From Tubulanus polymorphus (lineage: Eukaryota > Animalia > Nemertea): 64,000 nucleotides of DNA. The position numbers were made by a program, and so were the translations under genes. The notes under the pieces were generated by a model. The model did not search any database. It was not told the origin of the DNA and saw only the letters and a program-made list of their open reading frames with translations. The stretch is from NCBI RefSeq assembly GCF_964204645.1, contig NC_134028.1, forward strand, positions 7,316,001 through 7,380,000, read 5' to 3'. Positions within the stretch are counted from its first letter, which is position 1, and every line of letters begins with the position of its first letter. Shown in pieces: positions 22,041 through 63,346 of the stretch.

Positions 22041-23716
22041 ATGGCTTCTAAGAGGATCGCTAAGTCTGCAGTGGACTGGGTGAAGTTCGCCGAGAAGGTC
22101 CCCAAGAGTCAGACCGATTATTTCCGCGCTTTCAAAGCGAAATCCGACCATTTCGTCATGAAGTAAGTCACAAATCAATCTAATTCAATTATTTTATTGG
22201 TGGTTAATCGGTCGTGTGTGACCTCAGTAAGTAACTTGATCGTTAGTAGCTTTTTTAATCATCTGGGTTAGTGGTTTGTGAACATATGAATAGAATATGC
22301 TTGCGATCATTTACTATTCTTAGACTTATTCCGACCAGCATTTTATGAAACTGTCATTATTGTTTTCTAAATTCTATAATTAAAGGGTACATGCTCATCC
22401 CGAAAGTATTCAAGCGATTGACTTCAGTTTCTACAAGAATAAAATCCACGCCGCAGGACTGGTCGCAGAGTTTGAAAAAGCTGTAAGTGTCGTACTAAAG
22501 TACTCAAGTATTTCATTTCATAATATTACGAGAATCCCATAATAAGACGAAAAAACCGAAAATGTTTTTCTTGAGCTAGTGTAGTTTATACTATATACTA
22601 ATCGTCATCTTCAGGAATACTGTGAGATACTACAGAAATTGTGAAATATATACAAATCCAGAACAAAGACGATTGATACAAACTAAGAAATGATAACTTA
22701 TTTCATATTCTAAAAATGTTGAATGTCAATCATAGAAAATTTTGTTTTGAATTCAGTATTGATTATTTGATGACATCAATTTTGTTTCGAGTTCATGAGT
22801 ATTTATGATTTTTGATGACCTGTATTTCAGTTCGCTGGTTTGAAGGTTCCGTATCCAGCCGATAAGAATAACATGATGGCCGAAATCGACAAGCAGGAGA
22901 AAGAAGCGGTAAGTTTAACCCTTTCAGTGCGTCTACATCGCACAGCGGTGTATTGATGTAATTAGTTTTTATCTCTATTGAAAAATGGCGGCACCTGTCA
23001 AACATAGTGAAATACTAGTAACTAACGATACACCGCGCCGCGGTGTAGACGCACTATAGTGGTATTCCCGTAATTCAACACACTAGGGTGGAATTTTTCA
23101 AAATTTTCAAATTATCTCCAGCACTATAGCATATTGGTTAGTCAGCGTTAATCTAATATACGTCGATGGAGCGCGCCTGCGTCAAATTGAACAATTGAAA
23201 ATGTAAATTTTTCGGTACCTTGTTTCAGGAAGTACGAACGCAAGAATTCACGAAAATGTTGCGCGAAAAGATCGGCGAGGCTAAAACTCACGTAAGTTTC
23301 TTCTGATCACGGATTCGTCTCAATTTTGATATGATACATTCAATTACCGGTAAGATGTAGCGTTTGTGACTCAAAATTTAGAATAAGTCGAGCTGAATGG
23401 TGATAAGAAGTAAGGTCCGAAACCAAGGTCTTTATCTCAGAATTTTAAATTTCATTACGATTAGAAAACCTCATTATCTGAGCCCAGCTTGTCATACGCA
23501 AATTTTAACATTTTTTTTTCTCGAAAACTCATTAATATTTTCGGATTGAATTTTCAGTTGGCCGAATACGACCTAATTCCACCGGTGAACGAATTGACGA
23601 TGGAACACATCGTGGAATACTTCCCGCACGCCGTTCCGCAACCGGAGACCAACCCGACCTTGTGGCCGCATAATCCGAAATCGCAACCAGCCACAAACCC
23701 TAATCTAATCCTATAG
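22041..23716 (+). CDS. ATP5PD: Mitochondrial ATP synthase subunit d (172 aa); exons 22041-22162, 22386-22482, 22831-22908, 23229-23291, 23558-23716
   Basis: MASKRIAKSAVDWVKFAEKVP..FRAFKAKSD, IDFSFYK..GLVAEFEK, LKVPYP and IPPVNELTME..FP..PTLWPH motifs. 519 nt in frame; AATAAA at 23931. Confidence 0.95.
22918..23150. mobile_element. piggyBac-like (TTAA-CCCTTTCAGTGCG) non-autonomous element; related pieces ~29375-29550, ~39346 and ~53085-53320
   Basis: ttaaccctttcagtgcg terminus. The internal ctctattgaaa..ggc.gcacctgtcaaacatagtgaaat recurs inverted at ~29420-29463. Confidence 0.55.
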
Positions 23717-27981: not shown

Positions 27982-30900
27982 TCAAGACGGGTTATCCACG
28001 TGACCTTCGTTCATTATCGGAAGTACCAGATCGTCCATATTCGGCAAGACAAACACTTTCTGCAAATATTCATAAAAAGACAAAAATGTTTAATCGAATC
28101 ACAATCAAACACAGTTGGCGCCCTGGACCCAGTTCTACAGTTATGAGTTAAGAGTTAACTGTGGAACCGGGTCCAGAGAACAATGTCCTAAGGCGATAAA
28201 TCTAAACGAAGGATATTGCGATGAAAGTGATTTGAATGAATGTATCAGGGGAAAGTTTTATAGACTGGCACTACCTCTAAACCAGGGTGAACTCTTAATT
28301 CAATTTCAATTGATTTAGCTACTGGGTTAAAGTTAATACCAGTCCGTAAAACTGGCCGCCGATTGATGGCATAAACAGAATTGCTTCATCCCCAGGGAAG
28401 TGTTTTGCGCATATCTGAGCTCCTTAGGAGTAATTCTAAAATACAGTTTCCATCTGACTATTAGTGTGTCATAAATGGTGAGTAGAGAGTACAACGCGGA
28501 AATTGCTATTTCATATTTCGCGAATTCTCACCTGAAATTCCAGTGCTAATTTCTTTTCGATCCATTCGGTGATATGAGTAACAGTCACGGCTCTTTCCCC
28601 GACCTTCGGTTTCGCCGATATCCACAATCGCGGATTAGTTCGAAATCCATACCTGTCGACATAGTACGTAAATCATAATCGATGGCCTACACGGTTAAAA
28701 CTAGTCTCTGCTGGTCTTAGTTTCAGAAGGATTTTCCTATGTAGTCATTACACACGCAATCAAGTAACAAGTTTAACTTTTTTCCTTCAACATTTCATCG
28801 AGAATATGTAAGAAAATGTTCAAATTATCAGTCATCAAAATTATGACCCTCAGTTACATCTTTCATGCTGTACGCATCAAACAAATCAAGTCAGTATTTT
28901 TCGGGACAAAATAGCAACAAAATACTGAAAATCAAGAACGGTTTGTAGCTCTGAGCAACTACCATATACGATGACTAAGTCAAAACTTAGTTCGCGAAAA
29001 CTGGAATTTTTTTTGTAATTCATACTTACCACAGTCTATCGGTAGGTGGTGGAGGTATGTTGACGGTTAGTACCCCGACCAAACTATGAACCTCGACGCT
29101 CAGTATTATAGGCGTGTTCGAAACTTCCTCCATCGCTTTTTTGATGTATTTGATCTCCGTCGCTTGTTGGAAGTATTTCGACTGCGTTATCTTGTCGACG
29201 ATGCGCAGAAGTTTTTTCTGCGTACTGTTCGCCGGCTGAGCATTCGCCGCTTGCCTGAAAGAGTTGAAACGCCTTAAAACCCTTTCGGTGCTGACTAATA
29301 AATACCAGAAAGTGCTTGAGATTAATTTGAAAATTTTCAAAAATTCCACCCCAGTGCGTTGAATAACGGGCATACCACCTAGTGCGTCTACACCGTGGTG
29401 CAGTGTATTGTTATTCATTTATATTTCACTATGTTTGACAGGTGCTGCCGTCTTTCAATAGAGATAAATCTAACTACTAATAACACTAATAACAAAGTCT
29501 ATCACTGATTTATACACCACAGTGCGGTGTATTCGCACTGAAAGGATTAAATATTTCAGTTATGTTATACGTACTCGTCGGCTGCAGTTGGTATCGTGTT
29601 TTCCTCCGTATCACTGTCCGAAGATGACTCAACGCTGTCTTCCTCGTCTGAATGCGTGATCGCCGACCTGTAGATTGGAAAAATAGCATTCACATCTAGA
29701 CGGTATTTTCACGTGCTAAGAAAGTGAGGTATTTTCAGAGGGCCCAGTTTCACAAAAGGATTAACTCTTAAAATCAATTTATCATCTTCATTACTTCAGT
29801 TAACGTTAGGTATATCATTTTTCATAAAATTGGCCCAGGCCATCGGGAAGGATTTGACAGATCTGCATATTACGACGAATGAACTATATTCATATTTAGA
29901 CCACTAACGAAAACAGCTGAGAACTCATTTCCTACTTTTAGCTGAATATTCAGACCCGAACTTAGGGGCCCAGGGACACAATGCCCACTTGGGAAGTGGT
30001 TTCAAATGCTCGACAATCTAACAATTTCAATATTCAACGCGTCTTCATAATTTCCCTCAAAAAGTTCAAAAACGTGTAAAAAGTGCTGATTTTGGCGAAC
30101 AACAATGGCTGCCAGTCTGCCATCTTGATTCTGACAGGGCCAGTTTTTGGGCTGAAGATGTGTCTAGGGTAGATACATGTAACCAAATATCAAGACATTA
30201 CCTTTGAAGTGTCCTCAAAACTTCCCAAAATAACTGGATTCCGTCTACGGACAAACGATGAACGAAAAGTGAACGCAATAGCCCGCTGGGACTAAAGCCC
30301 CAAGTGGCCTTAAAAACCACGAAAGGCTTCCAATACCTGTTGGTCTGTCGAACGTTTTTTTCACGATGTTGTTGGCTCTTCTTGAATTTCATCAGGTTCA
30401 CCTTCGTTTCCAAGGTCATGCGGAATCCGCCGTTGTATGCGATGTCGGCGTCGAACCACATGCCCCTCTCATCCAGATACGGTTTACTGGCGCGACGCAC
30501 AACCGGCATCTCCGTTCCTAATTCGATTTCCGTAATCGTCAACTCGTCGATAAAATATGGCACCTGAAATGAATAGCGTAGACACGTGAACCGGAACCAA
30601 ACTATAACAGACTACTCCCTATTCTCGACTGTTCAAGCCAGTAAACTGCTCGCCTGCACCAGCAAGACTCTAGGACAATTGGTCCCTGGACAACTGCAAG
30701 ACAAATGCCAGTTGCTCAAAAGTTGGGTAAAGATAACCGGCAGATACCATAGTAACAATGAACTTTAAATTAACAATATGTCTACTATCCACTGGTTAAA
30801 TCTAACTGACTTTTGAGCAACTGGACCCACCAGCAGATGGCTGGGAGGTCATCAAAATTGAGTAGATTAGATCAGTATCCCTGTATTCTTAAGTATTTTC

Positions 30901-33900
30901 CCTTTCCCCATTATTACACAAGCCACTAAATGTCAAATCAGATTTTTCTACCTAGGCCAACTTCGGTTATCAGAGTTAGTCGACTATAGTCGAACTTAAC
31001 GAAACCAAATGTCAATTAGTCCGAACTAGGCCTATGGCCCGCAAATGGTTGCTGTAGTTGTGACATCCTTCCAAGATGGCCAACACCGTGAAATACGTTA
31101 CGACTGAACTATAGTACGTTGGGTTATTAGTTCTGACCACTAGTCGACTAGCTGTGAAAAACGAAGTTCGCCCTGGCTTGTGGTAAATTTCTAATTGAAT
31201 CATGAAGCTTCTCCAGCAACTTACCCGAATTTTGCTGAGTTTCTTCTGAATTTTCTCCGACACCTTGTCGGCGTAGTATTTGTCGCGTATGAAATCGTAG
31301 AACGTTCGCGTCAACAGCGCGTTGAACCAGAACATCTGCGGATCACAAGTGATCTGCCCGACGATCGATGCCGAGCCGCCGCCGCGCTGCATGTCCTTGA
31401 TCATCAACGAATACGACCGCGACCTCGACGTCGTTGACGCGTCCGCGGGAATAACCTTCGCCATCGATCGCGCGTATTCCTGCTGCAATACGGTCTGCTC
31501 GTCTTGCGTCGTCGTCGTTGCTGTCGTCGCGTCTTTCGCGCCCGGATCCGAGCACATCGACGAGATCGAATCGGTCGAGTTTTGTCGACAGCGTTTGAAA
31601 TCGGCCGAAACGCTGCGCGTGAGAATATCGGCGAGACGCGTGTTCAGGTGAACGCCCGCGGCCGCTGCCGAGAAGCGACGATACCACTCCTCCTTCTCGC
31701 GGTTCGTACGCGCGAATAAATACAACAGCACTTCGTCGCACGCTTCTTTGGAAACGAACTCGAAACCTTTCTCGAAATCGGCGTCGTCCAGTGAGCTATG
31801 CGTCGACAGCGGCGGTGATTTCGTCATCGTCGCCCCCGCGTTTACGGCGTTTACACCCGATTGCGTTTGTTTGTTGATTATCAAGCAGATCGGATATTTC
31901 TTGCTCCACAGACGCTTTTTGACGAGGTCGCCGGGCACGAGGCGCACCGTGCAACCTTTCAGGTCGTAGTAACGCTGGTGGATGAATTTCGGGCTGTGTG
32001 TCGTCTCGTCCCACATGGCGCGTTTCGGCACGTTGTGTCGCGGCCGTTGGAGGCGCAACGTCGCGTTCTCCAATGTCAGAAATACCGAGTTCGTCTGATT
32101 GATGTGGTAATCGTCCGGGTCGTAGTGAGGCAATTCGTTCATCCAACCCTACAACGAAATTACATCCGTTATATCTTGGTGAGCAGATTACATTTTGCAA
32201 AACACAAGTTCATGCCAGGGATCCAACAAATTTCATTCTTGGAAATTGCTCTTCAGGCCTATTATAATTGATCAATTGATTATACTGTAGTTCATAGTGC
32301 AGATTTTGTCACATAGCTTCTAAATGAATGACCCTAACCATAATAACCCGTTATTGGGCAATGAACAAAATACTTGGTCCAGTTCCACAGTTGTGAGATA
32401 GAGTTGAAATTATTTCATTTTCGATGAGTTAACTCCGAGTCAGATTTTAACTCGCAACTGAGTAACTTGATCCTGAGTGATTTTGTCATCTAGAGAGCCT
32501 TGAAGTGACATGAAAAGTTTGCAGAAATTGAATTGTCAGTGAAGGACAAGTGGCCTACGTAGGCCCTTTTCAGGAATAACATAGGCCAACTCCCAAATGA
32601 TTATGTCCGAGACGACAAAGAAGTAGTCGTGTTGCCAATATTTCCATCTTTTTTAGGTTTTATTTATCTACGTACATCTACTTTATAAATGATGAAGTTG
32701 GCCAATAAACTACATATGTATTATCAGAGATTGTAATCCGAGCTCTAGGGAAATTTTCAAATCTATTCTAGCTGCTTGCCATGTGGGTAGTGCTATGTGG
32801 GTGTTGTCTGTCCATTAACAACAGGGGGAAGTAATGAAAAATTTTTGTGGCATAAATACTATTTGTCATACTTGCTAATGCATTATTATTCACAGCCCGC
32901 ATGCTTTTCTATTATTTTGTTGCATCAAATGAACTATTTCATGTACGGTCCTAAATTCTTAACTCTATACAGGGATTGGAGAAGTACATCTTGTCACGTT
33001 ACTTTGGGGCCCTCTTCACTAAAGCCGAGATTTGAAAGGTTTTGCCACCTCCTGAAACGTTGCGTCTCATTTCAGTTTTCTACATGTAGTTCTGTCCAAG
33101 TGGTCATACACATGTCATGTAACAAGTGTTAATCAGGTTTCTGTATTACAAAACAACAGAATTGCATTAGGCCTATAAGCGGGTATGATACAGGTATTGC
33201 TTGTTATAGAGCAAATGTTTTGAAATTTTTTGAAGGATATTAAATAAACTGACATATTTCCTTGTATTCACACCTTTGATTTCGTTATCTAGACGGTTTT
33301 GTAGAGAGATATTGTACATTCGTTCAATCTCACTGTCGTCGATTAACAACATTGTCTAGTTTCCATGGTGACAATGTAAATAATTTGCCAGACTATTCAT
33401 TTGGATCCCAACTTTGCAAGGGAATGAACTTTTCTATGAGGTACATGATAAGTCAGGAAAAGGTTAATTGCTATTAATTTTTTTAGTGCAAGTTACCGTT
33501 TTCAATTAACAACAACGTCTAGTTTCCACGGTGATTATGTAAATAAATTTTTCGGATTCGATTCAGTCGGGTCCTAACTTCATCATTTGCAAGGGCTTGA
33601 GGTAAACCAAGGGTTCTCTGAGGTATATCACATGTCAGGAATGGAAGGGTTGATTGCTTTTAATTTCTTTAACAACATCAGGGGCCAGTTGCTCAAAAGT
33701 TGGTTAAATATAACCGGTCGTTAAATACCATAGTAACAATGAAATTTCAATTGTCACTACGTCAACTATCCACTGGTTAACTCTAACCGACTTTTGAGCA
33801 ATCGGCCCCAGCACGATAACATACACACAACAACGAATGCGGCCCCTTGAAATTCAAGCATACGGAGGACACTGGAATGGGTTAAATCGAAAATTCGAAT

Positions 33901-35560
33901 ATTCGGTTATACGTACCCTGAAATTAGCGTCGGAATTGCGATTCTCCTTTATTTCCGGCACGACCAGCGCCGGCAGCTCGTTCAGCGGCGGTACGAACTT
34001 TTCGAACGGCTCCTTCGGCGTCGGCTCTTTCATTAGCCACAGGTAGAACGCGATTGAGGTTGCCGCGACGACCGCGCCGACGATCATGCCGGCGACGTAC
34101 GGCGGCCATGGCACGATCAAATACAAAAACAACAACGCCGAACTGACGACGACGCGACTCAACGGGAAACGCGGCAAATCGGTTACGAACTTCTGTTTCA
34201 ACGTCGCGAACGCGAATTGATCGCTTTGATCAGTAGTAGATGTAGTAATCACAGACGGCTCAATTTTACGGTCATTTTCACTCGAAATTTTATTCTTATC
34301 GTCTTCCTTTCTAACGTAAATATCAGACCGCGATGATTTCTGCCCGGGCAGCAACGGCGGCGGCCGAACGGGCGATATTTTTCTTTCTTCGGCAGATTTT
34401 CGATAACTAGTTGTCGTATCATTATCTCTAGTTGCAGTGGTAGCTTCGCATGATTGATCGCGCGAATCGCTTGATTGATCTGATCGGTCCGGCGCGTCGA
34501 TAGCCGGAGCGTCGTCTTCCTCCGGCGTAGCGCAAGACAACAGACTAGACATTGTCATGGCAACCGTCGTCGGTCGGCCGGCGTCTTGAATCGCGCCGGA
34601 ATCGGCTCGATCCGGTGGTCGAACGGCCGATTGAGACGACGAATCTCGTTCGGTATTATTCGATAACGTCATATTTCCCGCGTCGTCGTTTTCCAGCGTG
34701 TGTGAATCGCGCCACAACTCCGCGTTGCTACCGGTCGAGTTTCCAAGAAAGTCCTCCAACGGCTCCGAACTGAAAATATCGTCGAAACTTTTATCGTGAT
34801 CGGAATCGGATTTCGTTTTCGTCTTCGGCGACGGTTGATGAGGTCGCGGCGGAGGCGGTTTTTTCTTCGGTTTTTCAGCAGCCGTCGCGCCGCTACTTTC
34901 GAACGAAAGCAAATTCTCGATTTCGGTTTTCAAATCGAGCAGCGGTTTTTCGACCGTCGTTGTCGCCGCCGCGGTCGCCACAACTCGAGGCTTCGACTCC
35001 ACCTCATCGGCCGCGACCGCGTCCTTAACTCGCGACGGCGATTCGTTCGAATCGGTAGCATCGGCCGCGATTCGAGACGCTGAACCCACGTTCAAACCGC
35101 TGTCGCTTAATTTGCGCGGTCGAAAATTCTGAACGACTTTGCTGTTGACCTCGCTTTGTCGACGCGGTGACGTCGGCTGAGAATTCGGCGACTGAAGCGG
35201 CGAGAGGCTGTTGATCTTCTCCGAAATCACGTTCAACGGATCGGCGATTTTTTCCTTGATCTCGTCGAGTAAGTTGCTGAATTTTCCCGAATTTTGTTCG
35301 CCGTTGTTCTTCTCGCCGCCGGCGACCGGAATCGAGCTCGGGCGTTTCTGCGATTCAGCGGCGGCCTTTACAGACGACGTGGTCACCGGGGCTGGAATCG
35401 TCGCCGCGCGTTTGCGCTCGAATTTCAACGAATCAGAAATCGAAAACAGATCCTCGTCTTCGCCGTCGGAATCGTGCAAACTCGGGTTGAAACGAATCGA
35501 GAAATTCGGCACGTCCTTCGTCGATCGACTCGGTAAGAATTTGTCCTTTCGCGAAGCCAT
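27982..35560 (-). CDS. TEX2: Testis-expressed protein 2 (PH + SMP/TULIP lipid-transfer protein, ~1103 aa); coding exons 33917-35560, 31225-32148, 30337-30563, 29575-29667, 29030-29254, 28532-28652, 27982-28059
   Basis: Disordered N-terminus and a TM hairpin (LLFLYLIVPWPPYVAGMIVGAVV). Motifs GWMNE, RLWSKKYPIC, LYLFARTNREKEEWY, KIQKKLSKI/VPYFIDELTITEI, VNIPPPPTDRLW/YGFR and KVFVLPNMDDL. 3312 nt in frame. A likely 5' UTR exon ends at the donor ~39862. Confidence 0.95.
33682..33808. mobile_element. PIF/Harbinger-like MITE with CAG TSD (second copy ~30706-30827)
   Basis: TIR gggccagttgctcaaaagttggtta / taaccgacttttgagcaatcggccc, with cag on both flanks. Confidence 0.75.
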
Positions 35561-36584
35561 TTTCTCTTCGGCGCGCGTCGTTAGAAGTCCGATCGGCGAG
35601 TATTTTGTGACGAACGTTGAGAATTCATTTCACGCGATAGAAAAACCTGTAAAACAAAAAAAAACGGAGCTTAATTGAGATGACTCTTAATTTCAAAAAT
35701 AGCATTTCTGCTTTAAAGCCGGACTCGGGTCGCACTAAAATCCGATCATCTGAGTCTTAAGAACACTCATGTCACATCGAGAGGTCTAGTCACTGATTCG
35801 TTCATCGGGTCTTATGTACACTCAGGTTACCTGAGATCCACGATCATTGTGAACAGAACGCTTAAGGGTCAAATGCCCTCTAATTCCTACTTTTTGAAAT
35901 TTACCTTCAAAATGATACTTTAGTACATAGATGATGACCTGGGATCAGCCTTATAGAAAAAAATCACTTATTTGTGATATGTTTGTAAATTCGCTATCGC
36001 TACGACCTTACACTTTACTACATTTCGTTTTGACCATAGGGTGACCACAAATCCTTAAAACTTTCGAATTCCCCCCCCCCCAATAAAAACAGAACTTTCC
36101 CTGTGTTCTGATGAATGGCAGTATTAATACAGACCAGAGAGTTCCTATCTTGACAGACTCAAGTAGTAAACTAGCCCAGTAAACATTCCGCTAATACATT
36201 ATATGAGAATTTTAAAATATACCATACCGGTCTGAATGAACTTTGTTAATTGGTAAAGTTTTGATCACAGGCATGATAACCATCAAAAACACAATTCATG
36301 GGGGAAATGTATATAGCCAAAATAAACTGTTTGATATTTTTGCAAAAAGTAAACACTTGCTAAATTTTTCGAAAGTAATCTTAAGCACGGAGACTCGCTA
36401 TGAACCCTGACATAGTATATGTACGCATTGACTATCATCTTCAACAATGACCCCTGTAGACAAATAACAACGAGAACAAGATTTCAACAGTGATCACCAC
36501 CAAAAACCTTCCTCAATCCGCAATCATCTAAGGCTTTATAGCCAGACCCGATCATAGGCCCGTAATCATAACATACTGGAACTG

Positions 36585-37528: not shown

Positions 37529-37689
<161 letters not shown>

Positions 37690-51500: not shown

Positions 51501-54500
51501 GATTTGTTTATTTTCTCTCCCTAGAAATCCGGGAGAGGCAGCCATTTTGTCCCGTGATCTCTCCGCAATCACACCGGCCGGCAGATAGGAGCGAATGGAC
51601 TCTCCGAACTCTCTACAAATAGTCACCTGATCAATGAAATAGAATGGAAATGGAGCGTTCGGATCAACGGTACTGCATTAACGAATCGGCCCTGAATGAT
51701 CAGCTATGAAAATATATCTCATGGTAGTTGTGGCGGAAAACGAGATATCTAATAATGGCAATGATCGTGACAGAAATTTATATGACAAATATTTCAAAAA
51801 CAAAAATATATTCACAAATAGGGGGAGCCATCATTGGATCGAGACAAACACCGACAACATAACTACGACTGGACAGGGCTCAGTGGTGAACTCACACTAA
51901 TTTTGCGCCGGTATTCTCTTTATCGCTGTAATTTTCATAGACGATCAAATCTTCTAAATGTCGCAGGATGTCGCCGACGGTTTTTCCCCTGAAAAAAAAA
52001 AAAACGACACGATTCAATTTTCTCTTCGATAGAGGATCATGTTTAACGGCACGATATGTTAGAAAATTCATTGATCGAATAGTCATTTTGAATCCACTAT
52101 ATCAAACACCAGGACCTAGGAATTCAGCATAGCACGTTTTGGAACGAATTACAATAACAATTGAAAACCATCCAAGACTAAACTTACATACACCGCCGTA
52201 TGCAAATTAACAAATGTCAACAATACCAACAATTTTATAAAAATTCCAAGATAGTGAATGTGCCATTCTACCATTAGTACCTACGCTAGTATAATTGAGT
52301 ACTCAGCAGACTGATTCATCATCAATCAAGGCCGCGACATAATGAATATGTCAAAAATTTGGTCATGAGTCACAATAGCCAACAACTAAATATTGAACTT
52401 ACTTTCCTTGTAAGGGTCCCGGTATATGTTGACTGCGCTCCGATTGATGCATCTCCGCACGTTCCTGATCCCATTTCCTTCAAATACCGAGAACATACAA
52501 ATCAAGCTCTGGCTTTAACCACGCCTATTGAGAAGGGCAAGTCTAAATAGGGCAGGGCTAGGAATTCAATGAGGTCCGTGCCAATGGTTCTACTATTCCT
52601 CAGTTGACTAATACTTTGGGAAATCCCAGCATCGGTTCCACACAACAATACAATACAATAGAACTTTATTGAACTCTAAGATTTTACAATAAAAAACATT
52701 CGAGTATGAAATCAATTAAGTCTAAATGTCTGTACTTAATTGACTTATGCTCGAAAATGGTTTTGAGTCAATGAGGAAACCAGTGGCATCCATATCAATT
52801 AGGAAAACTCTAGATTAAAAGCTACTTCTCTTTCAAAATTGAGCTGCCACCTAGATCTTTAGCCCCTCATATCAGAAATTTCGCAAATCATGCCCAATCA
52901 GAAATACCCGTATAGATCGATCTTTGGGTTTCACATATTTCTAATCGATCGAGAAATTATGGATCGATTTTAACTGAACCAGAGAAGAAATCGGGCTTCG
53001 TTCTCCTGCCTGATGCACACTAGAAAACTGCTGGATCCTCACTCGCCAGGAGCAGGATCCTCGATTGCTACACAGCTGAACATTCTTTCAGTGCGGTGCA
53101 TAAGTCGGTGAGGAACTTTGCTAGTACACCACATTGTGCAATATTTATTGATGTACTTAGTAACTTATTGAAAGATGGCACAAACTATAAAATACGTGTG
53201 TTGAAATATTGGTAAGGATACACGCAACGTAGTGTAGATGCAATAAAGCCGTATGCCCATTAAACAATGAACTGGGGTTGAAGTTTTCAAAATTTTCTTT
53301 TCATTTCCGGCACTCTAAGGGTAACAATAAAACAGCACAGAAAGGGTAAAGTTATATTGCATCGTAATCGAATTGTAATGGCTTACTGTTGGATATTGTT
53401 CAGCATCGATATGTTTTTTCTTGCTTGTTTTTCCACTTGTTTCATCATCGGATCAGCCATAAACAACTGAAAAAATACATACATTTCAACTTTATCACAG
53501 GCATGTATTATCTGACTGAGACAAGCCATTATACGTGTCGTTCTGAAAAACTAAGGCTTTTAAAGCGGATATTTTGCCAACACGGCATTATTTGAGTTAT
53601 CGTTATTTTGCGTAATTGCGCATTCTGATTGTTAACTGACAGAACTTATAACAAACCCTCAACCTAAACCTCTTATTAACCCTGTTCCTAACCCTTAAAT
53701 CTTAGACCTACCAGGATCGTTATTCAAAAACATTTCAAACATTTAAAAATCGTAGGTCTATATGTATTTTATGGGCGTTTACAAGAATAATGCCATTTGC
53801 GAGAAAATATCCACTTCCATTATCTTCCTAAACAAACTGATTTAGGCCTAATAGCTAACACATACAAAAAATTGACACGTTATGAATGGCGGATATCAAT
53901 AATTTATCATAAATTGTCACCACTGATCTGACAACCACCTTTCCAGTTGTTATTTTTCTGACTATGACTTTTTTATCAACTATCACCAACAATACAAAAA
54001 GAATACTTTATGCATTTTTGCTATTGTGGATAGGTCATGATAACAGTACTTTAGTAACAAGTTTATTAGTCAACAAAATTGCAACAGTTTGTACATGGAT
54101 TAAGATCGTCAGGTGAGGTTTTATAGGTATCAAATAAACTACGAATCTGTTGCGCGTTGATCACAACAAAAATTAGACGGATATCTTAAGAGACAATGAA
54201 ATGCTAGGCAAATTACTCGTCAGTCAAATTGGCTGACGAAGATTGCATACAAAAATGACCTTCCCATTCCTGACTGTGGTTTGTGAAGAAAATATCCGAT
54301 TGTGAAACTAAATCAGTCAGAGTCAGGTTACTGACTAGTATAGTGTAGGCCTACGTCGTCTCATTCAATCAAAACTTACATCTCTCATTTTCGCTTGTTT
54401 ATCCAATGCGTCAGATTGATTAGCTGCCCCGCAACGACCCGATTGGTCATGATCTGATTTATTCGTGTCCGAACTAGTCGAAGTTCTACTCGTCGTCCGG

Positions 54501-54721
54501 CGTCGAGGAGGAACTGCCACTGAAGCCGGGTCGCTTTCGCCGGTTACGGGGCCGTTATCATTCGCTTTCGGCCTCTCGGTTTTCTTACTGTTCACCTCAG
54601 CGTCGGCGCTGACATTTTGACCGAGCTCTATGTTCATTTTGTTGTCGATCTGCTCGTTTTGCGGCGAAATTACACTCTTTTTTACATCATCGCGACTCGA
54701 AGCGTCATCGACGGCGGCCAT
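42599..54721 (-). CDS. PDXDC1: Pyridoxal-dependent decarboxylase domain-containing protein 1 (~904 aa); 23 exons: 54380-54721, 53387-53466, 52403-52477, 51896-51988, 51032-51187, 50239-50428, 49690-49758, 48617-48695, 48449-48533, 47974-48094, 46989-47144, 46520-46570, 46103-46195, 45960-46023, 45807-45874, 45311-45416, 45158-45216, 44933-45045, 44162-44286, 43823-43941, 43620-43712, 42967-43066, 42599-42876
   Basis: HIPGPLQG, EGLVRVCRLALH, PVIYISAAAYPGIGQHLCSQLGLP, IWLHLEG, CDSMT, GLLRQVPLVGSIVSWLSP and KGRTFNLQSGKIESTEEIY match human PDXDC1 as I recall it. 2715 nt in frame; all introns GT-AG. Confidence 0.93.
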
Positions 54722-55554
54722 ATTTGAATCATCGACACGCAAAAGGTTGAAAGCCTGTTTTGGTCGATGGCGAGTGACGTCACTAGTACAAATTCCGAGC
54801 GGTTCGAATCCCACAATACGCCAAAATCACTACGGCCGCTCTGAGCGCACATCGCATTTCAACGTTGCCGTTTAATAATTGTAAAATAACTAATAATAGT
54901 TTAAGTTTTATAAGGGTTAGAAGTACATTGTATTTACTGCTAGTGTATGTATATATCATGTACGGTTGCGAGAAATCCCTGCCCTGGTTAAACAGTAAGT
55001 CCACTAAATCTTTAAATTTTAAGTTGTTTAATGAAACTATTATTGTTTTAAATTGTTAAAACTGCAAACTATGGTTGTCGAAGATGCACCTTCTTCACAT
55101 CCTTTGAAATCCTGGATAGCATCGCTGTCGGCAAAGACCTTCAGGTCTGTCTTCAACGGCACATCGCTTTGGAACAAGCGACTACTGTGTTATCAAATCT
55201 GAACTAGGTAAAAAAATGTTCCCCAAAAATAAAGACAAGTAAACGGATTAATTTGAGGTTTGAATGTTTTTGTTTATTTGTTGGTTCAAATCGAACCCTC
55301 GTCATCCTGATCTCCATAAATCTAAGAAAAGTATTCGCACACTTAAAACAATAAAATACGAGCAATAAGCAATAACATCAGACTGGAGTAAGTAACTTTA
55401 CTTAATTCACAGATACAATCCTACACAAAACAATAGCTATTCAGTGGCGGATCCACCCCTCTATTTTTACCGATGTAGCCGCAAATCTATGCGTTACTGA
55501 GTAAAAACCGAATGAAATGCTGGATCCGCCCCTGAGTGCAGACAAAATGATCGA

Positions 55555-56540
55555 CAAAGACATACAGAACTCTAAAACAACAGTTAACAATTTAAGCAAC
55601 GATAGACAAAACAGATAGCTGATTACTTTACAAACCTGTTGTCAGAACCTTAATTATTTTTACATGTACATACAGAGGACTGTTAACAATTCAACCAATG
55701 AAATTGCGATAGAGATACAGAACATACAGCTTTAACAGTAAACAATGCAACCAATGAAATTGCGATAGAGATACAGAACATACAGCTTTAACAGTAAACC
55801 ATGCAACCAATGAATTGCGATTAACTAAGACCTACGAGCAATTATCAAGTTTGATAATTGCTCGTAGCTAAGACATACAGGACAAACAGGACTAACTTAA
55901 TTGCGATAGACATACAGGACATACAGGATTAACAGTAGACAATTCAACCAACGAATTGCGATTAACTAAGACATACAGGACTAAACCACAGGACATACAG
56001 GACTAACAGTAGACAATTCAACAACCAATGAATTGCGATTAACTAAGACATACAGGACATACAGGACTAACTTAATTGCGATAGACATACAGGACTAACA
56101 GTAAACAATGCAACCAATGAATTGCGATCGCGATCACAAAGACATACAGGACAAAACCACAGGACATACAGGACTAACAGTAGACAATTCATTAACCAAT
56201 GAATTGCGATTATTTAAGAAATACAGGACTAACTTAATTGCGATAGACATACAGGACATACAGGATTAACAGTAGACAATTCAACCAACGAATTGCGATT
56301 AACTAAGACATACAGGACTAAACCACAGGACATACAGGACTAACAGTAGACAATTCAACAACCAATGAATTGCGATTAACTAAGACATACAGGACTAACT
56401 TAATTGCGATAGACATACAGGACTAACAGTAAACAATGCAACCAATGAATTGCGATCGCGATCACAAAGACATACAGGACAAACAGGAATAAACCACAGT
56501 AAATTGCGATAAAAAAGACATACAGGACTAACTGCAGTAA
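55555..56540. repeat. Complex modular tandem-repeat array inside the element
   Basis: Shuffled modules GACATACAG, TAACAGTAGACAATTCAACCAATG and AATTGCGAT. A 56-bp duplication at ~55693/55749 and a ~337-bp higher-order duplication at ~55886/56223. Confidence 0.9.
55832..55867. repeat. 36-bp perfect hairpin flanked by a 7-bp direct repeat
   Basis: CTACGAGCAATTATCAA-GT-TTGATAATTGCTCGTAG, flanked by CTAAGAC at 55825-55831 and 55868-55874. Confidence 0.9.
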
Positions 56541-57312
56541 ATATATAGGGCCTTAGGAATGCAAAATTCATTCATTTTGTCATTTGTAAACATTCCACAA
56601 CTTATTTCATTATGTCATTTCCAGTTTTCAAAGGGAATTTTCTTAACTTCAGATGCCTCGAGGACATAAACATATAGAAAGATCTGTCCCAAAAAAATGT
56701 CAAGTGTCTTTCATAGTGCAATGGGCCCTGGTTTCCACGTTTATATATCACATATAAAATTCTACAGAAACAATCAATGAATAAGTGAAAATTTACGAAT
56801 AACAAACAAGACATTCAAGCAGTTGAGTAAGTTAAAATGGGACCAATCTATATATATATTATATATGGATTATACAATTTAATCAGGGACAGCCTTGAAC
56901 CGAGGTTGATGTGTCCATACACTCTCTTCATACACTCTCTGAACATGCATGTATGTATACTGCTGCCAATTGATGATAAGTCAAGGATGTTGAAGTTCTA
57001 GACATGGTCAGAATCATCCAGAGACATCGGCACGCATCACAATAACTGATGATTTTGCAGTAACCTGTAACATAAAAAATCAAGCGGTAATCTATTCACA
57101 AAATATATTTTCCTGAAAGAAAAAACCTGAAATAGAGCACTATAAACACCAGTGCATATACATCGCTTCTTAACCTTATATATAATCGAGTAAATATATA
57201 GGTGACTAAGTGACGGTCATTATAGGCTTCTACGTTCACCATGGGAAATGAAAATATTTCTAACGTCAGGGATTCATTCGAAACCCGATCAATAATATTC
57301 TATACAAACTAT

Positions 57313-60089
57313 TTAGGAAATCGGGTCACAATGAAAACAAAACCACCTGATATGTTCAGGAGGAGCCTCATTGATTGGAGCACATTTCCAATGATACCAT
57401 CTATGGCAATTATCACATTCAATTGAGAATGTGGACTTTTTCTTAGGATTAGCATTGCAGTTTTTGTGGCAGACAGGGCAGGTTTCAGCAACTAACTGAG
57501 AAGGGGTTTTTTCAACTTTTGATGACAAAAGATTATCTAGTTTCAATTTTGCTAGGTTTTGGAGGCCTGCATTTCCAGGTTGATCTATAAGAATTTCTAA
57601 TTCTTTTTCAGAATTGGAATTATTGATTTCTGTAATAGGAGAACTGTTGAGATAATCATCTCTATTATTATAATCGATTACAATAGATTTTTTCTTATGA
57701 TGATTATGTTCAATACGAATGTGCTTTTGAAGGAATGTTTCACTTGCATATGAATTAATAACCCCATCTGCCCAACAAATAGCACATGAGATAGGTTTCA
57801 AAGATGAATGAGAAGTGGATATGTGCCTATCTAGTTCCCTGCGACATGAACAAAGATATGGAGGATTTATTTTGTCTTTAATACAAAAGGAACAGACAAT
57901 ACTTTTTTCAAATAAAACAGACTTCGAGTCATTTTTAACAACTGGTATTGACTTAATATCTTTTGGTTTGGTATCTTTTGATTTTTTTGGTAAGGATGAT
58001 TTATTCTGACTTAAAATATCTGCTGAAAATTCGATATCATTGCCAGGATCTGGATCAGTGGAGTCTATGGTTTCAATTTCTGATATTTTAGCTTTTTTAC
58101 CTAGTTTGATAGCAGCATTTTCAACCATAGCAGAAAAGGATACACCTCTGTTAGCAGGTCTAATTATCTTTCGCCCTCCGTGTCTTGCATTCTCAGCATC
58201 TTTAGGCATTGTAACCTTAGGGCAGTAAGGGTCTATCACTTCAAGTTCAGGAAGGTTTATGGCAACCTGATTGTCCTTGATTGGACCCTCAGCACGCCTA
58301 TGAGCCATATTGTGAGGTTGTCGTTTGGCAGGTCGTCCGCTTATTAACTTAATTCCACAGTGGCTTTCATTATGTAAAATACTTAGAATGTGCCCTTTCC
58401 GAGCAGCATTGATATCATTCGAGCTAGCAATGTGGGAATGATCTTTTAACTTATCAATGAGGGTAGATGAAACAGAAATATTTTGTCGAGTAAAATTGTA
58501 AGTTGGCAGAGGCTCCACAATGTGGAATTTATATGCATCAAATAAATCTCTATTGTAGCATCCCTGAATATGAAAACAAAGCTTTACAGCATAAATCATA
58601 CCAATACCAATGAATTTCTATAATTTCATTTCGAGAAACATATTACTCACGTTCTTAGTCTGATAAAAAGGAGTAAATAATTGAGGCTTTAAACAAATAG
58701 CAACACCAGCCACATCAATTTTAGTCATGTACTGGAAAAAAAAGACAGATTTGTGCATGCACAGCCTTTAGGTAATTGTGAAATAAAAGTGACCAAACTA
58801 ATATTAAATCATAAGTTCTTGAGATGATATGTACCTGGTCGAATGTGAAAAAGGCTCTTTGATCTTCACAACAGAATTGTTTCCTTGTATGATGCGCAAC
58901 GTCAAAACTGCTATACTGGATTGAAGGATACAAAAAACTGTTAAAATATATCTAACTTTATAAAGATAAATCACGTACAAATCACTTAGGAAAACAACTT
59001 TACCACTATTGTTGAATCATCCCATGCTCTTGCTTGATCATCCTTCAATTTGTTTTTTGCTATCAGCTATCAATATGATTCATTAATTCAATGCAAGGAT
59101 TTTGAATAAAGTGGTTTCGTATTCAAGTTATAAAAACTAATTGCAAATCATTCATTTTCTAGGATATCAATGCTAAATGATTACCTTTCGTCGATGGACT
59201 GCTCTACTTCTTTGCATCTTTTCAATCTCATATGGAAAGTATTGAGGGCACCTGATTAAGAATCATTCATTATTTCCAGTACAATCATAAAATTCATGTA
59301 GTTTGCATACCTGGTAATTGGATAAAATAATGCAATTCTACGTACATTTCATCTTCATTTTTCAATAGCAGTAGTTCCATTATCCTGTTATTTATGAACT
59401 GATTTCCCTTACGGCTGGGGTGTAACAAGTCAGTCCTAGATCACAAAATTTAGAAAAAAACAAGTTAGTTTAAATCGCGAAAAAATGCACATAACCTACT
59501 GGGCTTATTAAAATTAAACGATTACTTACGGTGAAAGGAGATCTCTTGAGAAGTGAAAATCAACGAACTTTACACCAAGTGTAAAGCATTCGCGGTGCAG
59601 CATTTCATTGTAATGAAATATTTTTGTGTCAGCATCGAAACTTTAAAAAAGAAAGAAATTTAAAAATCATTACATCGATCATAAATATAGTACTTCAAGA
59701 AAAATCTATTCTTGATACTTACTCATCACATCGAGGAAAAAGAGCTGGTACAATGATGGTCCCAGTACATTTATAGAGCAACAATCGAATTAATTCAACG
59801 TGTCTTCGCAGAACAATCTCAAGCGGGACATCACGCGTCATATTATTTGTTCCAACATGGACGATTAGTTGTTCCACATTCAGCATCTTCACCTTTTTCA
59901 ATTCTGTAATATACAACTAATCAGTAACCCAATGAAAATGAACAATATAAATCAGTACTGAACCGAGAAATTACCTTCCATCAATGTTTCAATGGTTCCT
60001 CCGGGGCACACGATCCTTGTCCATTCAAATAAGCCTACACCATCTAGCCCAGCATACTTTAAAATGCTGTCTGCTACGAGACCAATACG
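57313..60089 (-). CDS. Element-encoded SGNH/GDSL hydrolase + 2x C2H2 zinc finger + PHD finger protein (>=679 aa); exons 59975-60089, 59723-59903, 59530-59640, 59346-59435, 59185-59251, 59004-59066, 58835-58915, 58651-58731, 57313-58563; start exon unresolved (candidate 60440-60484)
   Basis: SGNH blocks I LVADSILK, II CPGG, III HVGTNN and V TDLLHPSRKG. C2H2-like CSFC..HISTSH and CAIC..HIRIEH. PHD CPVC..IECDNCHRWYHWKC..WFCFHC. Eight GT-AG introns (71-118 bp) with matching phases; 2040 nt with no internal stop. Confidence 0.85.
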
Positions 60090-60543
60090 CTACAAAAAAG
60101 ATTATTTGTCAGTCTCAGGCCAATATCACAGGGAGGTGTGAGAGAGCACACTGGTTACTGTAAGACCCTACTACATACAAAAGAAGTGACACATATATGT
60201 ATATCAATGTGATAGAATTGATTGAAAAAATTGTGCATAATAGTAGCTAGTGCCCAAAAATAGAACACAGTGTTATTGAAGTGAAAATTTCTAAAATCCT
60301 CTGAAGCGGTGCTTATTTGGTAGCTACATGGGTATTCTAATTGAATAAGCATAAAGATAAGCGTGCACACACAGTAGCCTATGCATAAACAAGGGCCAGT
60401 TTCACCTTCACCTAAAAGTCCTGCAGTGTGAAGACTAACTTGTTCACCTAAACCACCTCTACCAGGCTGTGGAAGGCCTAACATCAGGCACTAAATTAAA
60501 AGATTCCTCTAAATCAAATTATCTATAAACATCCTCTTAATTG

Positions 60544-60804
60544 CAGGCAGACTGATTCAGGGAGGGGTGCAGCCCAAAATAGGGCATACATATCAGTATC
60601 ATATATAATTAAAAATCAAAAGGGCACCAGATCATCAGAAAACATAATACCTATATTTTGAAAGTAGGCCTACAGAGAACATGTTTTGGAATATAAGCTT
60701 TTTAAAAATACTTGTTGATATTTTTAATTTTTCCTTTAAATTTCATTGCGACTTAAAAGTTTTAAGGGGTGTACACCCCTGTATACTCTCCTGATCTGCC
60801 CCTG
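60544..60804. mobile_element. Nested host MITE (same family as 2459-2706) inside the large element; another short one at 55442-55534
   Basis: cagg...gatctgcccctg ends, internal cccaaaatagggcata, aattg on both flanks. Confidence 0.55.
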
Positions 60805-61106
60805 AATTGCCACTTAACAAAATTTCTCAGCTTAATTGTTGGCTAACTAGCTCAGTGAAACTGGGACCAGACCTAATGCATACACCCTCAGTGGCCAGGG
60901 CCAGGATTAAACAGTTAGGCTACGTATATAAATAAAGGAATGAAAAGTACTTATCCTGAAATTGGTTAGGCTATCTATCTGCAACAAGAAATACATTTTC
61001 ATTGACTCTGAATACAGGGAACTACCATTCTTCTGTTTCGAGGCCTTAAAATTTATTGTTTATTTTTTGTTGCTGGATTTGGAATGGTTGTTGGAATATT
61101 TAAGGC

Positions 61107-61654
61107 CTAATGTCTATTTATTAATGAATGAGACCTGTTTTTCTTGGATATTTTGCTTACTTTTTGGGGTACATACCTCATTTATGTCTTAACAGAATGC
61201 CAAAAATCGCGGACAACAACTGAATATCCGATATATTTCCAGTTCTGTACCATTTAGATGGATTGGCAAAAAGACTCCTTAAGTCCAGTTGAATGAGAGA
61301 GAAAATCCTCCATTTTGTGAAATTTCTTGAATTTTTACATTGTCACCATGCCTACGAAATGAAGTTATTTTTCTTGTGGGGTCTCAACAACTAAATCAGG
61401 GTGGCGTAGGCATGGTAACAATGTTCAAATCCAAGAAATTTTACAAAATGGAGGATTTTCTCTCTCATTCAACTGGACTTAAGGAGTCTTTTTGCCAGTC
61501 CATCTAATTGGTACAGAACTGGAAATATATCGGATATTCAGTTGTTGTCCGCGATTTTTGGCATTCTGTTAAGACATAAATGAGGTATGTACCCCAAAAA
61601 GTAAGCAAAATATCCAAGAAAAACACGTCTCATCAATTAATAAATAGACATTAG
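61107..61654. repeat. Long inverted repeat: 250-bp arms (61107-61356 / 61405-61654), 48-bp spacer
   Basis: The arms read as near-perfect reverse complements, e.g. ggcaaaaagactccttaagtccagttgaatgagagagaaaatcctccattttgt vs acaaaatggaggattttctctctcattcaactggacttaaggagtctttttgcc. Confidence 0.95.
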
Positions 61655-61688
61655 TAGGTGGTGACTGTGTACGGGCAACATAGGCCTA

Positions 61689-61723
61689 TACCCAGTGGCA
61701 TGGCAATGGCATGCCACTGGGTA
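61689..61723. repeat. GC-rich hairpin (14-bp stem, 7-nt loop)
   Basis: TACCCAGTGGCATG-GCAATGG-CATGCCACTGGGTA. Confidence 0.8.
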
Positions 61724-63346
61724 CCCACTACTGCACTATAGTATACTGCCTACGGCTACTGCGACTGGTGGTTCGGTTGGCAGAAATTACTTGTTAACAT
61801 GGGGGGGGGAGGGGGGAAGTAAGCGTGGATGAAGACAAATTAATTTAGCCGAGTAAGTAGCAAGCAAGTAAAGTAGTGGCAGTACAGTAGGCCTAGCGAC
61901 AATGTGAGTGTGGTGGTAACGTGGCCGTGGTGGCAATAACAAGACTCCAAAACTGGCAAAAGCCAAAATTAAAAAGCCCTGCCGCCGCGCGGTCGCGACG
62001 CCTCGCCTGCACCACCGTGTACGATCCTCGCGGCGTTCACCAGTGTTACCCAGTGAGTTTTTTATAATCTTGCAATCTACCTCTTTTTTCAAACCAATAT
62101 TCCCACCAACTGGTCCGGAGACAAGCTTAACACGTTCGGAAAACATGATTCACAATCTTTTAATCAACAGCCAGCAAGAATACACTTGACAGAAAATTCA
62201 AATTCAGCGGTTAACCGTTAAAAGTGAGTTGTTTAGCTGTGGGAGTAACAAAAAGGCGATCTTGATGACGTCACTAGCCATCGACCAAAACAGGCTTTCA
62301 ACCTTTTGCCATCGACACGGTGGCAATTTAAAACGGCTAATGTTGAATGAAACTTTCAAAGCGGTTCGAATCCCCAATTAAGAAAACGGATAACCTGACG
62401 AATTGAGCTTCCAGAGTACGCGGCTCCGAGAATATTACTGACAGCGCTCTTCCCCAATTATGAAATAGGAAGACTCCGAGAATAATCGGTTCAAGCTCTC
62501 CCCCGTCGACAGGTCCCTGCGGACCGGTTGTGCTACCGTCACAAAAATTTCGTTCTCTTTTTCCATTCTTCATCCCTAAATAAAGAAAGGCATATTTTTA
62601 GTCGTCCTCATCTCAAAGCAGAACGGGCACACCCACTAAGACGAAGGGCCGTGTAACAGGGCACCCAGGTCTTTCAGAGCTGGCCCGCGAATTCGGAGTT
62701 GAAATTTCTCTTAGAAAGTATTTGCACCAAGACTTCATTTACCGTATTTCTTGGAAATTGCACCAAAATGCTACGCTCCAACAATCGGCTGTCCGCCAGC
62801 GGACCTGCGGTCCAGGGATCTACCCCTGCCGCTTTTTGGAAAATTATCCGCCGCGCATGACAATCGAAGAGTCATTGGAGTCACTTATGGAGTGATTCAG
62901 CAACTCGGGACATCGGGCTAACCACCAAGGTTCCCTCAGGAGGGGCAGATTTAGAGGGCCCCAAGGTCGTAGTGACACTAGTTCGAAAGAAATGTTTTGT
63001 CCTCTCAGATCCGTTTTCAATTTTCCTGAATAATGAATCTTGCTTGAAGTATTGTCCAACATTATAAATAAAAGTTCTTTAGATATAATTTCACAATTAA
63101 TAAGTGATGATCCACGTTGGAGCGCGACATTTCTACTGCTTATCCATACACTTTAAGATTCCCACCATGCAGCTGCGCTAAAAACCCGGTGTCTGCTGGC
63201 GCCCTACGAGAATCAGGGCCGATATCCCCAGTCACATTTCGGTTATTGATGCAGCTATCACCTCTGATTTACATTTGAATCATTCGTAAAATATTATTAA
63301 TAACAGTTGATGTGTTCGAGGTTACTCTGGTAGGCTTAGCGATTAA

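Follow-up and report, generated by a model that had tools for sequence, protein, structure and literature searches.

The transposon at positions 54739-62309 of the window, the 64,000-nucleotide stretch of Tubulanus polymorphus DNA analysed here, is very probably an internal-deletion copy of a multi-copy nemertean family that is likely Mutator-type and young. In a single frame, the full-length gene of this family would encode an SGNH esterase and a Ulp1-like protease (both predicted), a GATA finger, a predicted DDE transposase, and SWIM and PHD fingers. We put the probability of this reading at close to nine in ten. The window copy has both ends and a 9-bp target-site duplication (TSD). Residues 233-1785 of the parent protein are gone from it and are kept in sister copies.

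The element is 7,571 bp long (54739-62309). Its 3' TIR (54739-54782) lies downstream of the gene, has the inner end TGACGTCA and matches the 5' TIR (62266-62309) at 43 of 44 positions; the inverted match stops at 44 bp and extends no further inward. The TSD, CATCGACAC, flanks the element on the left (54730-54738) and on the right (62310-62318), with a chance of ~6e-6 for such a 9-mer match at the base composition of the window. Neither the TIRs nor the duplications are assigned a strand. The 44-bp TIRs and perfect 9-bp TSD of the original prediction are therefore confirmed, and the insertion it called recent is likely a young copy. A tRNA scan of the window found no tRNA genes.

The element carries a minus-strand gene with ten coding exons, GT-AG introns throughout and an open frame of 701 amino acids. 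The 22 codons of coding exon 1 (62081-62146) agree with the N-terminus of the sister-copy model P0095, and this exon likely carries the true start; its GT donor and phase fit exon 2. Exons 2-5 (60089-59975, 59903-59723, 59640-59530 and 59435-59346) encode the SGNH/GDSL esterase domain. Exons 6-9 (59251-59185, 59066-59004, 58915-58835 and 58731-58651) encode a linker without family assignment that is identical to the RefSeq protein P0002. The last exon (57313-58563) contains five codons of the upstream part, the deletion joint and a C-terminal region with Cys/His fingers and a PHD finger (~57328-57480; Pfam, E 3e-5), and is 99% identical to a T. polymorphus protein of 1,995 residues. The product consists of residues 1-232 of P0002, identical, followed by residues 1786-2196, with 408 of 411 residues identical. 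The gene had been described as intact: its ten exons, splice sites and open frame stand, but a deletion at 58546-58549 has fused two separate parts of the parent gene. Both domains named in it, SGNH and PHD, have Pfam support. As predicted, this copy has no DDE transposase ORF; searching 2,141 frames of the window with a profile built from the transposase core of this family gave none (best E 1).

P0002, the 2,196-residue parent protein, is annotated at three T. polymorphus loci. Near-identical pieces occur at 18 or more annotated loci, a copy number counted on RefSeq loci alone, on sequences of eight different lengths, and three of the loci are full length; many sister-copy gene models are truncated. 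Aligned to P0002, 16 of another 18 Tubulanus proteins reach at least 96%, and the remaining two (P0095 and P0019) do so outside skipped exons. In the parent, the transposase is located between the SGNH and PHD parts within one protein. The in-frame joint in the window copy (58546-58549, minus strand) removes 1,553 residues, or 4,659 coding nucleotides, containing the Ulp1-like protease, the GATA finger, the D-D-CxxH-W-E transposase core and the SWIM finger.

Sequencing data from outside the assembly reach this missing DNA. At 58546, 57 raw reads from a different sample and study depart into it (agreement 0.98), and in translation their sequence matches the part of P0002 that immediately precedes residue 1787. 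In all three further runs, contigs continue from both breakpoints (58546 and 58549) into the missing DNA, two of them for ~2.7 and ~2.1 kb. Deletion joints of other copies were also seen, at 58472-59809 (4 reads) and 58622-59616. These data bear on the idea that the family is transposase-less or two-component by design, with an SGNH-ZnF-PHD accessory protein as its sole product and a separate element moving it. The window copy is indeed without a transposase and its 701-residue frame is open. However, an in-frame joint is expected in one of three cases by chance, other copies are deleted at different joints, identical exons border the transposase in three full-length loci, and reads and contigs run from both breakpoints into transposase DNA. 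We consider this design refuted by the full-length loci and the breakpoint reads and contigs, with next to no probability remaining. The original prediction was right that the copy is non-autonomous, but the two-component design fails, as the transposase is in the parent gene itself; nor is an esterase/chromatin-reader accessory factor the only protein of the family, since full-length copies encode the 2,196-residue protein including the transposase. A Pack-MULE or two-component system was also rejected, because what the copy carries as cargo is its transposase gene, reduced to both ends.

The deletion was likely made by error-prone repair, which would have left the 2-7 extra letters at the joint as filler, and the frame would have been kept by chance. 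Alternatively, the assembly may have collapsed a full-length autonomous copy at this point. Among the reads and contigs listed for the four runs, none crosses the 58546-58549 joint of the window copy, and the 57 reads leave it where the depth is ~90. A minority joint of a multi-copy family, though, gives neither a loose end nor a joint when aligned to itself; extra letters of this kind are often present in repair joints, and the reads show genuine deletion joints in other copies. An assembly error is therefore very unlikely, and we treat the deletion as real. The four runs aligned to the window revealed no splice joints and are uninformative about expression.

Conservation in the family supports the domain assignments. 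D1343, D1435, C1454 and H1457 of P0002 are invariant in all ten sequences covering them, and W1531 and E1566 in all 12. D1343, D1435 and E1566 constitute the DDE triad of the family, which the deletion removed from the window copy. The four SWIM ligands are invariant in 11 of 11 covering sequences. H607, D624, Q680 and C686 (invariant in 9 of 9) correspond to the His-Asp-Cys triad and oxyanion Gln of the Ulp1/C48 proteases. The family profile matches yeast Ulp1 (E 0.0019), SENP5 (E 0.018), GATA fingers and the TAF3 PHD finger; the Ulp1-like region had no Pfam match in the family members searched.

The MULE signature comprises a (C/D)-x-x-H 15-45 residues after the second D, a W before the E and a TSD of 8-10 bp; for Mutator/MULE elements, TSDs of 8-11 bp and TIRs of 14-500 bp are reported. 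C1454-H1457 sits 19 residues past D1435, inside that range, the invariant W1531 precedes E1566, and both the 9-bp TSD of this copy and the 44-bp TIRs fall within the MULE ranges. The D1-D2 spacing is 92, versus 60-84 in arthropod MULEs in a published survey. The Pfam MULE profile PF10551 matches none of 12 family members; PF21056 (ZSWIM1-3 RNase H-like) matches five (best E 0.042) and SWIM three, all below the cut-off. MULE transposases are expected to show an RNase H fold carrying an alpha-helical insertion, of the kind seen in IS256/ISCth4. A structure model of P0090, a 39%-identical homologue, resembles DDE enzymes at low confidence (pLDDT 58). ISCth4, of the MULE-related IS256 family, has the top query TM-score among the matches listed (203 residues, Z 8.1, rmsd 6.8), and Hermes and RAG1 align with Z 7.0 over 200 residues and Z 6.2 over 223 residues, respectively. 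Integrases, an OTU enzyme and a designed protein have Z 8.0-9.1 over 82-114 residues, and Foldseek with this model gave no match at E 0.001 (E 0.008).

The Mutator/MULE type originally proposed is supported by the 9-bp TSD, the TIRs, and the D-D-CxxH-W-E core and SWIM finger in the parent. Because the deleted part has MULE anatomy, reads run into the missing DNA and the hairpin described below is separate, the element is likely a non-autonomous MULE derivative. The family could instead belong to Rehavkus, a sister group of MULEs, whose published description agrees in the 9-bp TSD, short TIRs, single ORF and PHD finger, and in the minisatellite preceding the 3' TIR. In a published alignment read by eye, however, the two Rehavkus cores visible in full carry D-x-x-H and lack T-x-N-x-x-E; the Tubulanus family has C-x-x-H and T-x-N-x-x-E, like the adjacent MULE row. 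SWIM fingers, which the Tubulanus family has, are listed under MULE groups but not under Rehavkus, and minisatellites are known in Phantom MULEs too. A place in Rehavkus is thus unlikely, and MULE proper is the preferred assignment. Two other superfamilies were rejected. The predominant TSD of hAT is 8 bp, versus 9 bp here. AcademH, considered for its TSD length of 9-10 bp, carries a RecQ-like helicase gene; the full-length protein has no helicase match, and the window copy has no room for a second gene.

The unusual feature of the parent is a putative SGNH esterase with an apparently intact Ser-Asp-His set, N-terminal in a transposase gene. PF13472 matches the sister-copy protein P0004 (E 1.4e-9), and a fold search also supports SGNH. 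S28, G50, N78, D160 and H163 of the 701-residue product correspond to SGNH blocks I, II, III and V (Asp-x-x-His), in frame, with Ala replacing the usual Gly in block I. Among transposons, this type of esterase is known mainly from RNA-copying ones. A profile search found SGNH in none of 20 transposase relatives from limpet, priapulid and others (best E 0.1), using gene models possibly incomplete at the N-terminus. Conversely, the family's DDE and protease profiles match none of 59 non-Tubulanus SGNH proteins (best E 0.17); both searches reach weak relatives only and leave distant fusions possible. In the Mutator/SGNH literature searched, no fusion of an SGNH esterase and a DNA transposase was found; the terms SGNH and esterase are absent from the main text of the MULE/DDE surveys examined, and among the matches listed for an esterase domain in the transposon literature, the titles point to LINEs. 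Most likely the esterase was captured as an accessory domain and is a relative of LINE ORF1 esterases. It would be expected to deacylate a host protein or lipid, aiding the element alongside the protease.

Alternatively, the domain may have no catalytic activity and be either a mere passenger or, like Oskar OSK, a pseudo-enzyme that binds RNA or lipid. Among sequences with solved structures, the nearest to it are those of Oskar OSK (E 0.002) and of a LINE ORF1 protein (E 0.013). The three full-length RefSeq models begin at a Met in exon 2, downstream of the catalytic Ser, and so are without the Ser-bearing block, and a 1,995-residue isoform is wholly without the esterase. Transposition in the lineage appears to need no SGNH domain, because none of the 20 relatives carries it. 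On the other hand, the window retains each of Ser, Gly, Asn, Asp and His in frame, and exon 1 gives a start upstream of the Ser. A Ser-containing start is known from four short models of other copies (P0004, P0010, P0095 and P0097). An idle domain is thus a real but doubtful possibility, and we favor a working esterase.

A broader and decidedly tentative proposal is that, on repeated occasions, cut-and-paste transposons in marine invertebrates took up a LINE-type SGNH esterase as a functional component. The nemertean MULE would be one such instance, independent of the others, in which the esterase is fused in front of a deSUMOylase-like protease, a transposase and a histone-reading PHD finger. 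If so, the esterase would serve mobile DNA at an RNA-free step, for example by deacylating a silencing factor or a membrane, and the in-frame derivative in the window would make an esterase-PHD protein able to act in trans.

Two repeat features lie within the element, neither with a strand. The predicted repeat array near the left end is present as a modular minisatellite before the 3' TIR (~55685-56525), with TRF periods of 56, 77, 166 and 171 and a 178-nt repeat pair that is 99% identical. The region 55559-56525 holds 15 of the 18 plus-strand ATTGCGAT copies and 19 of the 20 GACATACAG copies of the window. The minisatellite likely represents subterminal repeats, which the transposase may bind. 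The giant hairpin predicted near the right end is also present, with ~250-bp arms (61107-61356 and 61405-61654) that are 96% complementary, but it is not the element's own part. It is a foldback MITE of a separate, far more abundant family, nested in intron 1 (61110-61651; 542 bp, 247-bp arms with 10 mismatches) and bordered on both sides by a repeated TA within CTAG. Read depth over the MITE is ~19 times the element median, 882 reads have mixed flanks, and one read-derived contig shows the element without it; a role for the hairpin in the design of the transposon family was rejected on these grounds. Rfam gives three miRNA-precursor matches within the hairpin; none reaches the gathering score, and any long foldback explains such matches.

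The element is inserted next to the likely first coding exon of a PDXDC1-like gene (54383-54721, minus strand), which has 113 open codons and a GTAAGT donor. Exons downstream match PF22937 (E 2e-12) and PF00282, and we infer that the first exon is joined to them. Measured from the TSD, the element likely sits 8 bp upstream of the PDXDC1 ATG. In the proposed mechanism, the transposase of a full-length copy would bind the 44-bp ends and probably the minisatellite too; as has been shown for the MULE Muta1, the element would have been excised and then inserted at a cut staggered by 9 bp. Targeting to promoter chromatin is likely the work of the PHD finger and would account for an insertion 8 bp upstream of the host start codon. 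The MITE would have entered intron 1 either later or earlier than the deletion. This copy could provide a test case for MULE ends rewiring the promoter of a conserved host gene.

As a deletion derivative with a nested MITE, the window copy itself is ordinary transposon biology; the novelty lies in the parent's esterase. For LINE ORF1 proteins, it has been suggested that the esterase may target the RNP to membranes (PMC4120745). An esterase that fronts the DNA transposase gene of a young family and is absent from that family's close relatives offers a natural with/without comparison free of RNA packaging.

The architecture had been considered unlike that of described DNA transposons. This holds for the N-terminal SGNH domain, which we did not find in the literature searched; Rehavkus is already known to combine a C-terminal PHD finger with a minisatellite that precedes the 3' TIR (PMC6446971), and Ulp1 and PHD domains are described in Mutator transposases of hydra and lancelet (PMC2836005). 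With animal Mutator/MULE elements (PMC2836005; PMC6446971; PMC5499845), the Tubulanus family shares the 9-bp TSD, TIRs, one ORF, the D-D-CxxH-W-E core, SWIM, an Ulp1-like protease, PHD, gene-adjacent insertion and non-autonomous deletion copies. It differs from those compared in its N-terminal SGNH esterase, in the place of the protease, which precedes the transposase core, in a GATA finger within the region likely to bind DNA, in its nemertean host and in its size (2,196 or more residues, versus 313-1,136 in the arthropod MULE survey). Rehavkus (PMC6446971) shares the 9-bp TSD, a TIR in the 26-400 bp range, PHD, the minisatellite and a spiralian host, and differs by the CxxH and TxNxxE motifs and SWIM finger of the Tubulanus family, as in MULE proper, and by the esterase.

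The relatives comprise proteins from Patella caerulea (13, so multi-copy) and Priapulus caudatus and six ENA proteins. They are 31-42% identical over the transposase core, and the long ones have the same order of protease, GATA, DDE and SWIM, most with PHD; they differ in the SGNH domain, seen in 0 of 20 gene models with possibly incomplete N-termini. The ORF1 esterases of CR1/L2 LINEs (PMC4120745; PDB 4c1b) share the SGNH domain at 25-37% identity. In 22 of 24 matches of at least 300 residues, SGNH is placed deep in the protein or at its end, and PHD is also present in 3 of 59 matches. The Tubulanus domain, in contrast to CR1/L2 ORF1, is N-terminal, intron-split and in a TIR DNA transposon, and the parent protein has no reverse transcriptase match. 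Another related system is texim of fish Helitrons (PMC4021074), an intron-containing, CR1-esterase-related SGNH hydrolase gene carried by a DNA transposon; texim is a separate gene beside a rolling-circle element, whereas the Tubulanus SGNH domain is fused to a cut-and-paste transposase.

The element at 54739-62309 (7,571 bp) is bounded by two terminal inverted repeats (TIRs; 54739-54782 and 62266-62309), inverted copies identical at 43 of 44 positions, and by the 9-bp target duplication CATCGACAC on both sides (chance ~6e-6). Between them lie a repeat array (about 55685-56525), a hairpin with 250-nt arms (96% complementary) and a spliced gene with GT-AG introns on the minus strand, so that every structure named in the original prediction was recovered. 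The gene has a 701-aa frame over 10 exons once a first coding exon borrowed from a sister-copy model (62146-62081, minus strand) is included. Profiles of the family's own transposase core and protease detected no transposase remnant in the window (best E 1 and 1.3 over 2,141 frames), in agreement with the claim that this copy lacks a transposase. The further interpretation is supported in part; its transposase-less family did not hold, as sister loci encode a 2,196-aa parent protein with a transposase.

This parent was reached through the last coding exon (57313-58563), which as query had a single match among 4,118 longer candidate proteins, one of 1,995 aa from Tubulanus polymorphus (99% identity). 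Its cluster has 11 members, including 2,196-aa proteins of three loci. The 18 loci named for the family lie on sequences of 8 different lengths; of 18 Tubulanus proteins compared with P0002, the 2,196-aa RefSeq protein used here for residue numbers, 16 align to it at 96% or more, and the remaining two do likewise outside skipped exons. The exon model of the window copy is identical to P0002 over residues 1-232 and agrees with it at 408 of 411 positions over 1786-2196; the 1,553 residues between are lost in frame. This identity points to T. polymorphus as the host. In a run from a different sample and study, searched with 56560-61356, 57 raw reads leave the window copy at 58546 (agreement 0.98) and enter sequence that translates to P0002 just upstream of residue 1787. 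In the three other runs, contigs depart from the window copy at 58546 and 58549, the latter side entering P0002 residues 233 onward, and two of them extend about 2.7 and 2.1 kb into DNA missing from the window copy. Since reads and contigs run from the breakpoints into the missing DNA, most family copies in the sequenced samples carry the transposase. Among the records listed, no read or contig spans the window joint at 58546-58549, which would also be expected of an assembly error; we give that explanation a small chance. Other deletion joints in the family, at 58472-59809 (4 reads), 58622-59616 (1 read and 1 contig) and 60518-60814 (5 reads), indicate that it sheds internal DNA at various places.

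The hairpin (61107-61654, in intron 1) has a different history. Read depth on its arm, where one arm collected both arms of each copy, was 1,322, about 19 times the median of 70 in 28 element bins. At 61107, 882 reads have mixed loose ends (agreement 0.34), and in one contig the sequence at 61654 directly follows 61109. The hairpin is therefore a separate 542-bp MITE (61110-61651, 247-bp arms) with TA on both sides, and it is missing from at least one element copy. The loose ends of the 882 reads before 61107 suggest that this MITE family inserts strictly at CTAG and duplicates the TA. We conclude, with a probability of about 0.88, that the window copy derives from the parent element by deletion and has a MITE nested in it.

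The protein region missing from the window copy includes a predicted transposase and a predicted protease. With P0002 residues 1300-1790 as query, six long (36-42%) and three short (31-40%) relatives were found in Patella, Priapulus and ENA records; the Patella clusters hold 13 proteins. Asp1343, Asp1435, Cys1454-x-x-His1457, Trp1531 and Thr-x-Asn-x-x-Glu1566 are invariant in all covering sequences, as are the SWIM set (Cys1754, Cys1756, Cys1768 and His1770) and the protease set (His607, Asp624, Gln680 and Cys686). By its sequence, this D-D-CxxH-W-E core fits the MULE signature in PMC5499845. The D2-E spacing of 131 is within the usual range, and the D1-D2 spacing of 92 exceeds the reported one (PMC13359780, section 3.2). 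In the PDB, the family profile matched GATA fingers, the PHD fingers of TAF3 and BPTF, Ulp1 (E 0.0019) and SENP5 (E 0.018). Some results weigh against the assignment: the Pfam MULE profile matched none of the 12 family members tested, the structure model of P0090, a 39%-identical homologue, is weak (pLDDT 58), and its Foldseek matches, mostly DDE enzymes, include none at E 0.001. In a wide structure search with this model, only ISCth4 (Z 8.1, 203 residues), Hermes (7.0, 200) and RAG1 (6.2, 223) aligned over at least 200 residues among the matches listed, and matches of shorter alignment equal or exceed their scores. ISCth4 belongs to IS256, the MULE relative in bacteria (PMC7780238). Between the protease and GATA regions, the parent protein also has a Ser/Thr/Pro-rich peptide repeat (P0002 ~790-925), which lies outside the window copy.

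The esterase domain is retained. P0004, a short sister-copy protein with the SGNH domain, matches PF13472 above the cut-off (E 1.4e-9), and its structure model resembles GDSL/SGNH structures (E 1e-4). Across 62 aligned SGNH segments there is almost no variation at the Ser, Gly, Asn and His positions, and the window copy keeps all of them (Ser28, Asn78, Asp160, His163). The 61 SGNH relatives comprise 2 from Tubulanus and 59 at 25-37% identity. Of these 59, 3 have a PHD finger, and in 22 of the 24 long ones the domain lies away from the N-terminus, an arrangement like that of LINE ORF1 proteins (PMC4120745); among proteins of solved structure, Oskar OSK and an ORF1-encoded protein are nearest in sequence. 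We infer a LINE origin of the esterase. That the esterase region has introns suggests either that it gained them or that it was captured from a texim-like gene (PMC4021074). None of 20 transposase relatives has an SGNH domain. The three full-length RefSeq models begin downstream of the catalytic Ser and one isoform skips the SGNH domain, so that a full esterase-transposase protein, of ~2,254 aa, is a prediction. The boldest reading, that cut-and-paste transposons have more than once recruited a working esterase, is less likely than not. A MULE-SGNH fusion was not found in the published literature searched.

The insertion site is close to a gene. The duplication ends 8 bp ahead of the ATG of a 113-codon exon, which has a good donor site; the exons downstream are PDXDC1-like (PF22937, E 2e-12). 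MULEs typically insert close to genes (PMC6446971, section 3). At 54383-54738, the insertion puts 7.6 kb between the likely PDXDC1 start codon and upstream DNA, with the element gene in the same orientation, and a 153-codon open frame (54826-54368) starts inside the TIR region and enters the host exon. The palindrome TGACGTCA, which we take to be a CRE-like site, forms the inward end of both TIRs (54775-54782 and 62266-62273), the sole two such sites in the window. An identical 14-mer, resembling the Pol III B-box consensus, occurs at 54799-54812, 60 bp inside the element 3' end, and at 62361-62374, 42 bp into the opposite host flank; allowing up to 2 mismatches, 4 matches were found against 0.16 expected. 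Perhaps the end of the element imitates a promoter motif of the host or takes its place; alternatively, the family may prefer sites with such a 14-mer. Elsewhere the window contains two minus-strand host genes, CLUAP1 (18796-20059; PF10234, E 3e-35) and one for a PH/SMP protein (29029-35629; PF23065, E 9e-5) that we assume to be TEX2-like, Cys-rich open frames (12897-14046; one with a weak PAN-domain match, E 0.0016), two inverted copies of an 89-nt sequence separated by 6.3 kb (22968-23056 and 29380-29468, 87%), several other repeats present as two dispersed copies, and a TA microsatellite of 157 nt (37530-37686).

The ends, the duplication, the deletion, the parent protein and the nested MITE are the observed parts of a transposition mechanism. 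End binding, excision through flanking hairpins and staggered insertion would proceed as in the MULE biochemistry outlined in PMC5499845, and the window copy would be mobilised in trans. The repeat array may provide transposase-binding sites (compare bioRxiv 2024.12.02.626372 and PMC5499845). The PHD finger could guide the choice of promoters, the protease could act in deSUMOylation, as suggested in PMC2836005, and the predicted esterase may remove acyl groups. In this manner of working the element resembles a MULE, and by its sequence features it is likely to be one. Its outer anatomy is like that of Rehavkus (PMC6446971, sections 6 and 8); the core motifs of the family, judged by eye against a published alignment, instead resemble those of MULE proper.
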